Of a stretch of DNA of 64,000 bases, positions 28,380 to 58,640 are shown one piece after another; within the stretch, counting starts at the first letter, position 1, and each line of letters starts with the position of its first letter. A program made the translations under genes and the position numbers. The stretch is from Candidatus Aminicenantes bacterium (lineage in GTDB: Bacteria; Acidobacteriota; Aminicenantia; Aminicenantales; Saccharicenantaceae), in contig JBGLNH010000001.1 of assembly GCA_041320535.1 (NCBI GenBank), forward strand, positions 7,670 to 71,669. Direction: 5' to 3'. The notes beneath the pieces were generated by a model. It saw only the letters and a program-made list of their open reading frames with translations, made no database searches and was not told the origin of the DNA.

Positions 28380-29513
28380 TCAAATCATCTTATAGAACGC
28401 CCGGTACTTCTTGTAGATCGTCCCGCCCATGCGCTCCATCTCGGCCCGGACCTTGACGTTGGCCTCCATCTCGTGGTGGGTGTCCATCATCTCGTAGCCG
28501 GCCTCGTAGGCCCCGATGAGGATCCTGACGCCCATGAGCACGTCCAGGCCCTGGCCCCGGTACTTCTCCTTGACCGCCCCGAGCAGCAGGTCGAGCTGCT
28601 TGGTCTTCTTGGCGGCCCGGAGGACGCGGATGAAGCCGAACGGGAGGAGCCGGCCCCGGGCCTTGCGGATGCCCTCGGTCATGTCCGGCATGGCGATGAT
28701 GAAGGCGGCGACCTCGTCGTCCTTCTTGACGGCCTTGACGAAGCGCGGGTCGAGGACCGGGAGATAGCGCTTGGCCAGGTCGTCCATCTCCTCCTCGGTG
28801 AGAGGCGCGAAGCCGTAGATGTTCCCGGCCATGTAGCACTCGTTCATGAGGGACAGGATGGGCCGGATCCAGGGCTTGATCTCCTTGCGCTTGCGGAACT
28901 CGACGATCTCGTACGTCCCCCGCTTCATGGCCCGCTCGAAGATCTTCTTGTAGAACTCCGGCGGCTCCTTGGGGACGTCGAGCTTGTAGACGAACCAGTC
29001 GCAGTCCTTGGCGTAGCCGTCCTCCTCGAGCCAGGCGGGCATCCACTCGAAGTTGTAGTAGGTGGCGATCGTCGCCCGGTGCTCGAAGCCCTCGATGAGG
29101 AAGCCCTCGGGGTCCTGGTCGGAGAAGCCGTAGGGGCCCACGATCTTGGTCATGCCCTTGGCCCGGGCCCAGTCCTCGACCGCCCGGAGGAGGGCCGTGA
29201 ACGCCTCCTTGTCCTCGTAGACGTCGAAGTAGCCGAAGCGGGCCGTCCGCTCGTTGCGGTGCTCGTTGAAGCGGTGGTTGATGATGCCCATGATCCGGCC
29301 GACGGGCCGGCCGTCCCGCCAGGCGACGAGGAGCGTCGTGTCGCAGTAGCCGAAGGCCTTGTTCTTCCTCCTGTCGAAGTATTTCCAGTCGTCCATGTAG
29401 ATGGGGTGGACCCAGTTGGCGTGGCCGGCGTGGATCTTCTCCGGGAGATAGATGAAGGTCTTCAGGCCCCGGCGGGACAGGACTTCGCGGATGTCGATGG
29501 CCATGGTCGTCAT
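28380..29513 (-). CDS. GNAT-fold acyltransferase-like protein (uncharacterised conserved family)
   Basis: 377 aa with RGQGLD-type acetyl-CoA loop and two GNAT-like halves. Confidence 0.55.
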   Translation of the reverse strand: MTTMAIDIREVLSRRGLKTFIYLPEKIHAGHANWVHPIYMDDWKYFDRRKNKAFGYCDTTLLVAWRDGRPVGRIMGIINHRFNEHRNERTARFGYFDVYEDKEAFTALLRAVEDWARAKGMTKIVGPYGFSDQDPEGFLIEGFEHRATIATYYNFEWMPAWLEEDGYAKDCDWFVYKLDVPKEPPEFYKKIFERAMKRGTYEIVEFRKRKEIKPWIRPILSLMNECYMAGNIYGFAPLTEEEMDDLAKRYLPVLDPRFVKAVKKDDEVAAFIIAMPDMTEGIRKARGRLLPFGFIRVLRAAKKTKQLDLLLGAVKEKYRGQGLDVLMGVRILIGAYEAGYEMMDTHHEMEANVKVRAEMERMGGTIYKKYRAFYKMI

Positions 29514-52263: not shown

Positions 52264-52461
52264 CTCGATCCTTTTCCCCTTTCCGGGCCTCCCTCTCGAG
52301 GCGGCGAGGGGTTTTGCCTCGACGATCCCCGTAGCGGAAGGGGACCCGCGAAGCGGGGGAACCGCCGGGACTGGTTCCCAGGGGGTCCGGGGAGCTAGAG
52401 GCAATACCCTGAGCCAAAGCCGGAGAGAGGGACTTCCCGGAATCGGGATACGGCCCTTGAT
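52264..52461 (+). repeat. hairpin-rich intergenic repeat, copy A
   Basis: Core 52281-52442 aligns almost base-for-base with 57837-57996. Starts right after the pth stop. Confidence 0.85.
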
Positions 52462-52549: not shown

Positions 52550-52924
52550 GTGAGACAGTACGAAACGGGGTTCGTTCTCTCCCCCACGCTATCCGAAGAA
52601 GAGACGTCCCAGTTCCTCCAGCAGATGGCCGAGATCGTGGCCCAGAAGAAGGGCCGGATGGTCAAGCAGGACGTCTGGGGCAAACGCCGCCTGGCCTTCC
52701 CCATCAAGCGGTTCCAGGAGGGCTTTTACGTGTTCTTCACCTTCGACGGCCCCGGCGACGTCGCTCCGGAGCTGGAGCGCCGGTTCAAGCAGACCGACGC
52801 CGTCATCCGTTTCATGACCGTCGTCAAGGACCCGCGGGACCTCGTCCGGCGGAAGAAGAAGAGGCGGGCCGAAGAGGCCGCCGCGGCCGCCGAGCCGAGA
52901 GAGGAGAAGCGAGATGCCGCGTGA
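52550..52924 (+). CDS. rpsF: 30S ribosomal protein S6
   Basis: GTG start 52550. [18 protein letters not shown]... with a basic/acidic tail. Confidence 0.9.
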
Positions 52925-53180
52925 AGACAGACCCGAACGGAGCGAGCGCGGCGGCTACCGCAAGTACTTCGCGCCCAAGAGGAAGTTCTGCCGGTTCTGC
53001 CAGAGGGACGTCCGGGGCATCGATTACAAGGCCGTCGACATCCTGAAGAAGTACATCCCGGACCGCGGCAAGATCACGCCCCGCCGGATCACCGGGACGT
53101 GCGCCTTCCACCAGAGGAAGCTGACCCTGGCCATCAAGCGGGCCCGGCTCATGGCCCTCCTGCCCTACGTCGAGGACTGA
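52914..53180 (+). CDS. rpsR: 30S ribosomal protein S18
   Basis: ...[55 protein letters not shown]. Confidence 0.95.
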
Positions 53181-53181
53181 G

Positions 53182-54672
53182 ATGAAAGTCATCCTGAAAC
53201 AGGACGTGGAGAAGCTGGGCCGCCGCGGCGACGTCGTCAACGTCGCCCCCGGATTCGGCCGCAACTATCTCATCCCCCGCAAGATGGCCCTGGCCGTCAC
53301 CCAGACGAACATGAAGACGATCGAGATCGAGCGCCAGGCCCTAGTTTTAGGGCCGGATGCGAGGCGGGGAGAGAAGAAGGACGCGGTCATGACGCGAGAG
53401 AGCGCGGTCGAAAGGAGGAGCGTCCTCCTCTACAACGTCTACCGGCTCGTCGTCCTGACCTCGCTGCTCGTCTCGGCCTTCATCATCCAGCTGTCCTCGC
53501 CCGAGACCCAGCCGAACCCGCCTTTCTATTACCTCGTCCTGGGCGCCTACGGCTTCGCCGCGCTCTTCTTCGCCCTCTACGCCGCGGGCCGGTTCCTCGC
53601 CGCCCAGGCCTACGTCCAGGTCGTCTTCGACCTCGTCCTCATCACGGCCTTCGTCTACATCTCCGGCGGCATCGCCTCGTCGATGTATTTCCTCTACCTC
53701 TTCCCGATCATCGCCGCGGGCCTGGTCATCTCGGGGCGGGCCGGCTTCCTGGCCGCGTCCCTCTCGGCCATCCTCTTCGGGGGGCTCGTCGACGGCGTCC
53801 ACTTCGGGCTCATCCCCAGCTTCCGCCCCGAGCACGCCGTCCGGACGACGCTCGGCTCGATGCTGGTGACCATCTTCTTCGCCTGGAGCGTCTTTTTCGT
53901 CATCGCCGCGCTGATGAGCAAGCTGGCCGGCGGCCTCCGCCGAGCCCGCGAGGCCCTGCGGGCGGCCGAGAGGGAGCTCCTCCTCCGGGAGCGCCTGGCC
54001 GAGGCCGGCCGCGTCTCGGCCAGCCTGGCCCACGAGATCCGCAACCCGCTGGCGGCCATCTCCGGCTCGGTCCAGGTGCTCCGCAAGGAGCTGGACCTGA
54101 CCGACGAGCAGCGGGAGCTCATGGCCATCGTCCTCAAGGAGTCGGAGCGCGTCTCCCAGAGCCTGGAGCAGTTCCTCGATTTCGCCCTTCCGGCCAAGCA
54201 GGTCTTCGCCCCGATCAACCTGAGGGACATCCTCGACGAAACGCTCAAGATCCTCCGAAGCGGGGGGGAGCTCAACGGCCAGGTCGAGGTCACGGGGAAC
54301 TTCCGCGCGTCCGACGTCCCCTATTACGGCAACGCCGGCCAGTTCAAGCAGATCTTCTGGAACCTCATCAAGAACGCCGTCAAGGCCATGCCCGAGGGCG
54401 GCCGGCTCCGGCTCGACTTCACCGAGCCGCGGAAGAAGGAGGTCGGCATCCTCGTCGCCGACACGGGGAAGGGGCTGTCCGAGGCCGACAAGGAGCACCT
54501 CTTCGAGCCCTTCTACACCGGCTTCGAGAACGGCCGTGGCCTGGGGCTGTCGATCGTCCGCAAGATCGTCGACGACTACGACGGCCGGATCGAGGTCCGC
54601 TCCGAGCTCCGTCAAGGGACGGAAGTCCTGATCACCCTGCCGCCGCGGAAGGCCGCGGCCCCGGGGAGATGA
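53182..54672 (+). CDS. single ORF fusing the ribosomal protein L9 N-terminal domain (about 53 aa) to a PilS-like 6-TM sensor histidine kinase
   Basis: Residues 1-53, MKVILKQDVEKLGRRGDVVNVAPGFGRNYLIPRKMALAVTQTNMKTIEIERQA, match the L9 N-domain. From ATG 53389 (MTRESAVERR...) come TM helices, H-box SLAHEIRNPLAAI, N-box NLIKNAVKAM and G-boxes. No stop codon lies between the two parts. Confidence 0.8.
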   Translation: MKVILKQDVEKLGRRGDVVNVAPGFGRNYLIPRKMALAVTQTNMKTIEIERQALVLGPDARRGEKKDAVMTRESAVERRSVLLYNVYRLVVLTSLLVSAFIIQLSSPETQPNPPFYYLVLGAYGFAALFFALYAAGRFLAAQAYVQVVFDLVLITAFVYISGGIASSMYFLYLFPIIAAGLVISGRAGFLAASLSAILFGGLVDGVHFGLIPSFRPEHAVRTTLGSMLVTIFFAWSVFFVIAALMSKLAGGLRRAREALRAAERELLLRERLAEAGRVSASLAHEIRNPLAAISGSVQVLRKELDLTDEQRELMAIVLKESERVSQSLEQFLDFALPAKQVFAPINLRDILDETLKILRSGGELNGQVEVTGNFRASDVPYYGNAGQFKQIFWNLIKNAVKAMPEGGRLRLDFTEPRKKEVGILVADTGKGLSEADKEHLFEPFYTGFENGRGLGLSIVRKIVDDYDGRIEVRSELRQGTEVLITLPPRKAAAPGR

Positions 54673-54676
54673 CGCC

Positions 54677-56092
54677 ATGGAAACGATCCTCATCATCGAC
54701 GACGAGAAGAGCCTCCTCGACCTGCTCACGGTCGTCTTCAAGAAGGAGGGCTACGCGGTCAAGACCGCGCCCACGGCGGCCGGCGGCTTCGAGATCCTGT
54801 CCAAGCAGGACGTCGACCTCGTCGTCACGGACATCAAGATGCCCGGCGCCGACGGCATGGACGTCCTGCGCTACACCCGGGAGAACCTGCCCGACCTGCC
54901 CGTCATCCTGATCACGGCCTACGGCAGCATCGCCCAGGCCGTCGAGGCCCTCAAGGCCGGGGCCCTCGACTACGTCGTCAAGCCCTTCGACGTCGAGGAG
55001 CTGAAGATCATCGTCGGCCGGGGCCTGGCCGCCCGGCGCCTCCAGCAGGAGAACCTCCTCCTCAAGCGCGACCTCAAGGGCCGCTACGGCTTCGAGCAGA
55101 TGATCGGCAAGAGCCGGGCCATGCAGGAGATCTACATCCTCATCGAGAAGATCGCCTCGACCGACTCGACCGTGCTCATCACGGGGGAGAGCGGGACCGG
55201 CAAGGAGATGGCCGCCCGGGCCGTCCACCTGCAGGGGGCCCGCCGCGACCACCCCTTCGTCTCCATCAACTGCGCCGCCCTGCCCGAGAACCTCCTCGAG
55301 TCGGAGCTGTTCGGCCACGTCCGGGGCTCGTTCACGGGGGCCGTCTCGGACAAGAAGGGCATGTTCGAGCTGGCCCAGCGCGGCACCCTCTTCCTCGACG
55401 AGGTCGGGGAGATGTCGCCCTGGACCCAGGTCAAGCTCCTGCGGGCCCTCCAGGAGCGCAAGGTCCGCCGGGTCGGCGGGGCCGACGAGATCCCGGTCGA
55501 CGTCCGGATCATCGCCGCGACCAACCAGGACCTGAAGAAGAGGATCCAGGAGGGCAAGTTCCGCGAGGAGCTCTACTACCGGCTCAACGTCATCTGCGTC
55601 GACATGCCGCCCCTGCGGAAGAGGATCGAGGACATCCCGCTCCTCATAGCCCACTTCCTCCAGAAATACTGCGAGAAGATGGGCAAGAACCCGAAGCGGT
55701 TCACGCCCGAGGTCGTCGGCCTCCTCGAGGGCTACCCCTGGCCGGGCAACATCCGGGAGCTCGAGAACGTCATCGAGCGCATCGTGGCCATCGAGGACCG
55801 CGAGACGGTCACCGCGAGCTGCCTGCCCCAGGAGATCGTCTCCCCAAGGAAGAGGAAGCTCGACACCCAGGAGCTCTTCGCCCCCGGGTTCAGCCTGACC
55901 CAGCACCTCGACGAGATCACCAAGAAATACATCCAGGAGGCCCTGGCCGTCACCGGCGGCAGCCTCCAGAAGGCGGCCCCCCTCCTGGGCCTGAGCTACC
56001 GGACCATCCGCTATCTTATCGGCAAGTACGACCTCAACCAGGTCCGCAAGGCCGAGCGGCGGAACGGCAACGGCGATCGCAACCCCGCCTGA
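54677..56092 (+). CDS. sigma-54-dependent response regulator (PilR/NtrC family)
   Basis: Receiver (DIKMPGADG), GESGTGKE, GSFTGA loop and C-terminal HTH. Confidence 0.9.
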   Translation: METILIIDDEKSLLDLLTVVFKKEGYAVKTAPTAAGGFEILSKQDVDLVVTDIKMPGADGMDVLRYTRENLPDLPVILITAYGSIAQAVEALKAGALDYVVKPFDVEELKIIVGRGLAARRLQQENLLLKRDLKGRYGFEQMIGKSRAMQEIYILIEKIASTDSTVLITGESGTGKEMAARAVHLQGARRDHPFVSINCAALPENLLESELFGHVRGSFTGAVSDKKGMFELAQRGTLFLDEVGEMSPWTQVKLLRALQERKVRRVGGADEIPVDVRIIAATNQDLKKRIQEGKFREELYYRLNVICVDMPPLRKRIEDIPLLIAHFLQKYCEKMGKNPKRFTPEVVGLLEGYPWPGNIRELENVIERIVAIEDRETVTASCLPQEIVSPRKRKLDTQELFAPGFSLTQHLDEITKKYIQEALAVTGGSLQKAAPLLGLSYRTIRYLIGKYDLNQVRKAERRNGNGDRNPA

Positions 56093-57770: not shown

Positions 57771-58640
57771 ATGGCCGCGGAACGGAAGGCGCCGAATTTC
57801 GGGGGAATCGACGGAAAAAAAGGTTCTTCTCCGATCTCCGGGATACCCTCTCGAGGCGGGGAGGGAATTCGCCTCGAAGATCCCCGTAGCGGAGGGGGGC
57901 CCGCCGCAGGCGGGGGAACCGACGGGACTGGTTCCCAGGGGGTCCGGGGAACTAGAGGCGATTCCCGACCGGAAGCGCAGAGAGGGACTTCCCGGAAATG
58001 GGAGAAGAACCGGAAAAAAACGGCCTCCGGGATAAAGGCGGTTTCGACGGCGTCGGGCATCCAAGGGTCACCGTCTCCGCGGCCGGACGCCGTCCAGGCC
58101 GACGAGCTTCACGCTATCCTCGAGGCCTTCCTGAGGGACCGCGGCGCGGCCCTCGAAGCGGCGGTCGCGGCCGTCGCGTCGAGCCTCGACGCCGGGGGCA
58201 AGGTCCTCGTCTTCGGCAACGGCGGCAGCGCCGCCGAAGCCCAGCACTTCGCCGCCGAGCTCGTCAACGGCTTGGCCCGGCACGACCGCCCGCCCGTCGC
58301 GGCCCTGGCCCTGACCGCCGACACCGCGTCCCTTACGGCCATCGGCAACGACCGCGGCTTCGCCGAGGTCTTCGGCCGTCAGGTCGAGGCGCTGGGCCGT
58401 CCCGGCGACGTGGCCCTGGCCCTGACGACGAGCGGCGCCTCTCCCGACGTCGTCGAGGGCCTGCGGGCGGCCCGCCGGAAGGGCCTGGTCACGATGGCCC
58501 TGACCGGCGAGGGAGGCGGGGAGGCCGGGCGGCTGGCGGACCACCTTCTCGACGTCCCGTCACGTTCGACGCCCCGCGTCCAGGAAGCGCACCTCTTCAT
58601 CCTCCACCTCATGGCCGCCCGGCTCGAATCGGCGCGCTGA
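57771..58640 (+). CDS. gmhA: phosphoheptose isomerase (SIS domain, GmhA-like) with a repeat-encoded N-terminal extension
   Basis: SIS motifs GKVLVFGNGGSAAEAQHFAAELV, TAIGND, TTSGASP and RVQEAH from about 58090. The only in-frame canonical start with a Shine-Dalgarno (GGAGGA 57759-57764) is ATG 57771, upstream of repeat copy B. Confidence 0.75.
   Translation: MAAERKAPNFGGIDGKKGSSPISGIPSRGGEGIRLEDPRSGGGPAAGGGTDGTGSQGVRGTRGDSRPEAQRGTSRKWEKNRKKTASGIKAVSTASGIQGSPSPRPDAVQADELHAILEAFLRDRGAALEAAVAAVASSLDAGGKVLVFGNGGSAAEAQHFAAELVNGLARHDRPPVAALALTADTASLTAIGNDRGFAEVFGRQVEALGRPGDVALALTTSGASPDVVEGLRAARRKGLVTMALTGEGGGEAGRLADHLLDVPSRSTPRVQEAHLFILHLMAARLESAR
57812..58020 (+). mobile_element. hairpin-rich repeat copy B with MITE-like termini
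   Basis: GGTTCTTCTCC (57822-57832) and its exact reverse complement GGAGAAGAACC (58001-58011), bracketed by CGGAAAAAAA at 57812-57821 and 58011-58020. Core 57837-57996 matches copy A. Confidence 0.7.

Follow-up and report, generated by a model that had tools for sequence, protein, structure and literature searches.

An apparent ribosomal protein L9-PilS kinase fusion in a Candidatus Aminicenantes record is very probably a contig joint

The open reading frame (ORF) at positions 53182-54672 of the window, i.e. of the whole 64,000-nucleotide stretch of DNA analysed, runs from the N-terminal domain of ribosomal protein L9 into a PilS-type histidine kinase. Judged from comparison with independent assemblies of the same strain, it is very probably (about 0.96) an artefact of a spacer-less contig joint at 53342|53343 and not a gene fusion. 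The record containing the window would be a pseudo-molecule, in which short-read contigs of a Candidatus Aminicenantes bin were strung together with no N spacers between them. The left contig would stop inside rplI at Leu54 (CT|G) and the right contig would start in the tail of pilC. The organism itself would carry a normal 167-aa rplI followed by dnaB, and a 427-aa pilS starting at ATG 53389 within a pilB-pilT-pilC-pilS-pilR-pilin cluster.

The reading frame and its domains

The window corresponds to C1:7670-71669 of a single record of 2,434,628 bp, whose coordinates are called genome positions in the following. The ORF (plus strand) comprises 496 codons and is stop-free throughout. In Pfam searches residues 1-46 match Ribosomal_L9_N (78.8 bits, cut-off 20.7), followed by 6TM_PilS at 74-257 (PF25323, 74.6 bits), HisKA at 276-335 (PF00512, 57.2 bits) and HATPase_c at 385-489 (PF02518, 86.8 bits), while Ribosomal_L9_C has no match in the 496-aa ORF. 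The first-pass annotation, which had described an L9 N-domain continuing without a stop into a six-TM kinase and lacking the rest of L9, is borne out as a reading of the letters. From its three domains and its pilR and type IV pilus neighbours the kinase can be classed as a PilS-type sensor histidine kinase. An exact look-up of the 496-aa fusion protein did not find it on record, which is weak evidence.

Features around the junction (window coordinates, strand, description, evidence):
52550..52924, +, rpsF (ribosomal protein S6, 124 aa, GTG start); gene call of a sister assembly (L025 5637-6011, PF01250), mapped via a 99.9% blastn alignment
52914..53180, +, rpsR (ribosomal protein S18, 88 aa); Pfam Ribosomal_S18, 88.3 bits; adjoins the ORF start
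53182..53342, +, 5' fragment of rplI (53 codons + 2 nt, L9 N-domain), probably cut by a contig end; Pfam L9_N; equals nt 1-161 of the 504-nt sister rplI
53293..53342, +, 50-bp stretch with an exact copy at genome 1621457-1621506; exact-match extension, both flanks unrelated
53342..53343 (genome 61011|61012), no strand, very probable contig-to-contig joint without spacer; sister-contig alignments left and right
53343..53350, +, last 8 nt of pilC (..C|AG TTT TAG; AGTTTTAG), in another frame than the fused ORF; sister contig and same-genus pilC ends
53351..53388, +, pilC-pilS intergenic spacer with the kinase ribosome-binding site GAGAAGAAGGA; read from the sequence, uncalled in the sister gene calls
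53389..54672, +, pilS-like sensor histidine kinase, 427 aa, a real gene; Pfam 6TM_PilS, HisKA and HATPase_c, sister call
54677..56092, +, pilR-like sigma-54-dependent response regulator, 471 aa; Pfam Response_reg, Sigma54_activat, AAA_lid_14 and HTH_8, identical protein in a sister assembly

The proposal that ATG 53389 is the kinase's own start agrees with its position in frame and with the sister assembly, which calls a 427-aa pilS there.

rplI and the pilC-pilS cluster on either side of the joint

A profile search located one Ribosomal_L9_C match in the record, at genome 1621538-1621732 on the same strand and 1.56 Mb from the ORF. This locus reads ...AVTQTNMKTIEIERQAL KKKLEAERKSF..., i.e. 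the continuation of rplI, and leads into dnaB. A second full-length rplI, which the first-pass annotation had suggested looking for, did not turn up in the record; what the search returned is the rest of the same gene. Window 53293-53342 (genome 60962-61011) is an exact 50-bp repeat of genome 1621457-1621506 with unrelated flanks on both sides, and is best read as the end overlap between two contigs that are truly adjacent. Just upstream of the 1621457 copy, on the opposite strand, lies a transporter gene without its N-terminal half, covering positions 194-334 of 336 in the CitMHS profile and 298-465 of 472 in Na_sulph_symp (Pfam); a search for the missing half via same-genus orthologues found no full orthologue. 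rplI is thus present as two overlapping pieces 1.56 Mb apart, with unrelated truncated sequence abutting each cut. Joined to genome 1621507 onward, genome 60851-61011 gives a sequence identical to the 504-nt sister rplI at every base but one, a missing T. Since the rejoined pieces give the 167-aa sister protein, the gene in the window would be an ordinary rplI split by the paste.

The missing T is a 1-nt deletion in the 3' piece at genome 1621889-1621890 (L001 about 1690) relative to three sister contigs (GCCGTTCCC -> GCCGTCCC). It shifts the frame of the last ~39 rplI codons, which then runs into dnaB as a 927-aa open frame, and the L9_C match in this piece ends at profile position 69 of 86. 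The deletion is a consensus error or else a true variant.

Sister contigs were found by an exact look-up of the S18 protein and then compared with the record by blastn. Among the matches listed, five of which were read, the identical protein stands in four other contigs, with exact copies on JBFYOA010000096.1 (GCA_041304065.1), JBFYNR010000028.1 (GCA_041304285.1) and two Logan assemblies (SRR28346269, SRR28346254). The contigs of GCA_041304065.1, GCA_041304285.1 and Logan SRR28346269 encode S6, S18, a 167-aa L9 with both L9_N and L9_C, DnaB and RadA, and the two NCBI contigs extend further to a PIN/TRAM protein, IspD and IspF. Sister contigs are 99.89-100% identical to genome 54583-61011, and the three carrying rplI-dnaB resume at genome 1621454-1626957 with 99.95% identity and an overlap of 50-53 nt. 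The two NCBI contigs then enter genome 511251, read downwards, via a 100-bp inverted overlap (511152-511251) that is also found in the repeat census of the record. The left side of the joint therefore continues into the 3' part of rplI and dnaB in independent assemblies of the same strain.

The contig SRR28346254_965704 from Logan ends at exactly genome 61011, the same base as the left piece, after the CT of rplI codon 54 (CTG, Leu) and before its wobble base. Because the contig in the window and the independent Logan contig both stop there, we infer a strain-variant branch in the assembly graph at this wobble base.

On the right side, an exact match of the PilR-like protein was found on the sister contig JBFYNR010000059.1 (GCA_041304285.1), whose gene order is pilB-like (MshEN + T2SSE), pilT-like (T2SSE), pilC (T2SSF, 400 aa), the 427-aa 6TM_PilS kinase, pilR, a prepilin gene and a PilY1-like gene. 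It matches genome 61012-71761 at 99.99% identity (1 mismatch in 10,750, blastn), and this identity begins exactly at the joint, i.e. at window 53343. Around the joint the contig reads ...CTC ATG CAG CAG TTT TAG GGCC, and pilC genes of the same genus end in ..QQF*, ..NKF* or ..SKF*. A stretch of 2147 bp, comprising the 3' end of the pilT-like gene and the whole of pilC, is present in the sister contig and missing from the record; the sister sequence before it equals genome 1125764-1130282 at 100% identity. At about 2.2 kb the missing piece would be shorter than the minimum that binning usually requires of a contig, and may have been dropped by such a filter. The pilus cluster in the window appears without pilB, pilT and pilC, yet the organism has them; the apparent loss arises because the flanking ~2.15 kb are missing and the rest lies elsewhere in the record.

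Genomes of the same genus give the same picture for either gene. An L9_C match is present in 17 of 18 of them (one match is split over two contigs), and in the one genome whose rplI was read whole (G008) a 167-aa rplI is followed by dnaB. Orthologues of pilS, 75-88% identical, occur in 20/20 same-genus genomes searched, 17 near full length and 3 cut short. The comparison of relatives' loci proposed at the outset speaks against a fusion, as the kinase is separate from L9 in all 20 and none has L9 preceding the pilS orthologue. Where the upstream sequence was read, the full-length pilS starts at the aligned ATG after pilC, and pilC ends in ..TTY TAG or TAA. Six same-genus contigs carry both genes; there the two share a strand, and pilS follows rplI at a distance of 122-191 kb.

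The palindrome GGCCCTA-GTTT-TAGGGCC noted at the junction is indeed present at 53337-53354. Its left arm consists of GGCCCT (6 nt of rplI) plus A (1 nt of the right contig), and the remainder is pilC tail and spacer. Native rplI reads GGCCCTG and the native pilC-pilS junction reads CAGCAGTTTTAGGGCC, neither of which contains the palindrome; it arose with the joint. Perfect hairpins with a 7-bp stem occur 20 times in the window if the loop is 4 nt, and 98 times if loops of 3-8 nt are allowed, compared with about 56 in shuffles; ~2.8% of window positions are spanned by such a hairpin. The palindrome at the joint is explained by a chance match.

The continuous frame has an equally simple origin. 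The right contig begins with an A, which turns the CT of rplI into the codon CTA, and ATG 53182 and ATG 53389 are 207 nt or 69 codons apart, so that they share a frame, for which the chance is one in three. The pilC tail and spacer, 46 nt in all, are stop-free in the fused frame. With the same strand, the same frame and these 46 nt free of stops, an ORF finder reads from the L9 N-domain into the PilS kinase. The codons CTA GTT TTA, correctly remarked on as atypical, look so because they are out-of-frame pilC tail and spacer, which is non-coding in the frame of the ORF.

Composition of the 2.43-Mb record

The record is deposited as one 'contig', is 81.6% complete and is smaller than most genomes of the genus (about 2.1-3.5 Mb). 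No 16S rRNA gene was found in it, while 14/14 control genomes were positive. It contains only one N. The longest exact repeat is 103 bp, and the repeat census shows a sharp pile-up of 13 pairs with unrelated flanks at 99-103 bp; these pairs look like the mark of de Bruijn contig-end overlaps. That repeats stop at ~100 bp indicates short-read de Bruijn contigs, and for the same reason we rejected the idea that the record suffers from long-read homopolymer errors.

Five joints could be placed against sister contigs, at genome 61011|61012, 1621456|1621457, 1626957|1626958, 511251|511252 and 1130282|1130283. Pieces measure ~30 kb at 0.03-0.06 Mb as compared with 5.5 kb (the rplI-3'/dnaB piece) at 1.62 Mb, and such falling sizes fit a size-sorted paste. 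From record coordinates JBFYOA010000096.1 (35,955 bp) should end at genome ~30866, i.e. window ~23197. A further contig joint is probable at this position, and the left contig would then measure ~30.1 kb. A look-up aimed at the left end of this sister contig, using the protein of window 28380-29513, gave no exact match. A 47-bp inverted repeat at window ~21008 was considered as a joint and rejected, as it falls within a conserved NuoF-like gene and matches a paralogue.

The record also carries a MITE-like hairpin repeat in 9 to 17 copies with 82-96% identity (blastn), including copies at window 52264-52461 and 57812-58020, L025 5358-5535 and L029 11136-11355. It accounts for many of the exact repeats of 40-98 bp.

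As the record would be a paste, gene order across any joint is meaningless. The number of joints can be roughly estimated at several hundred, so that a few are likely to be same-strand, in-frame and stop-free, each resembling a striking domain fusion. Before a fusion, a truncated gene, an unusual neighbourhood or a breakpoint in this record is interpreted, it therefore needs checking against contig joints. The L9N-kinase ORF would have no biological significance of its own, and automatic annotation of the record would spread a false L9-kinase protein into protein databases.

Alternative explanations and known systems

Two observations fit the contig joint less smoothly. The 50-bp overlap is unlike the 99-103-bp overlaps dominant elsewhere; moreover, for a 7-bp palindrome to fall precisely on the joint is a chance event at the few-percent level. 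We considered the 50 bp as an att-like core of site-specific integration and rejected this, as neither junction restores a gene and the block is 5.5 kb long and ends in another contig overlap. The assembler might instead have wrongly joined rplI to the pilC tail within one contig. Such a chimeric misassembly is expected to leave the same sequence, and the lack of an N spacer at the joint agrees with it. However, the end of rplI and the tail of pilC share no k-mer able to mislead a graph assembler, and the independent Logan contig breaks off at the very base where the left piece does. Several other joints in the record behave alike and piece sizes fall along it, from ~30 kb here to 5.5 kb at 1.62 Mb. 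We consider a misassembly of this kind very unlikely.

It is more improbable still that a real rearrangement or deletion in the strain split rplI and made an expressed L9N-PilS fusion protein. The open frame, with an intact kinase behind a complete L9 N-domain, is what such an event would leave, and the first-pass annotation had offered a genuine, deletion-born chimera as one of its two explanations. Against this, the 3' part of rplI persists elsewhere in the record, and the two halves share the 50-bp overlap, which marks contig ends rather than recombination. Strains that are 99.9-100% identical are normal on both sides, with an intact rplI-dnaB and a separate pilC-pilS. The block with rplI 3' and dnaB is only 5.5 kb long and lies between a truncated unrelated gene and a second verified joint, pilC is missing entirely from the record, and the record bears every mark of a pasted bin. 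We give just as little credence to a junction physically present in a subpopulation of the strain, where a rearrangement would attach the ribosome-binding L9 N-domain to a PilS-type kinase at its cytoplasmic N-terminus and tether a pilus regulator to the ribosome. The other explanation offered at first, an assembly or indel artefact, holds in its first half, as the sister contigs differ from the record on both sides of the joint; the indel does not, the form of the artefact being a concatenation of contigs without spacer.

The contig joint has its closest counterpart in concatenated pseudo-molecules of draft genomes and MAGs. As in those, genes that have nothing to do with each other meet in mid-domain with no spacer between them, the true neighbour is found at another place in the record and shares an end overlap of k-mer length, and a single sequence lacks an rRNA operon and any long repeat and has a completeness well below 100%. 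Nothing essential differs; peculiar here is a joint that is same-strand, in-frame and stop-free and so mimics a domain fusion. Once the two pieces are rejoined, the order of S6, S18, 167-aa L9 and DnaB is identical to the canonical bacterial rpsF-rpsR-rplI-dnaB, which in the record is broken after rplI codon 53 by the probable paste. PilS and PilR of type IV pilus clusters are a 6TM PilS kinase and a sigma-54 activator, as in Pseudomonas aeruginosa. The window likewise has a kinase with 6TM_PilS, HisKA and HATPase_c, followed by a regulator with Response_reg, Sigma54_activat and HTH_8 and by a prepilin gene (PF07963:N_methyl), and in the sister contig pilB, pilT and pilC precede the kinase. 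In contrast to PilS/PilR, the putative PilS-type kinase of the window lacks a PAS domain between its membrane domain and HisKA. The L9 N-domain would be no part of this kinase.
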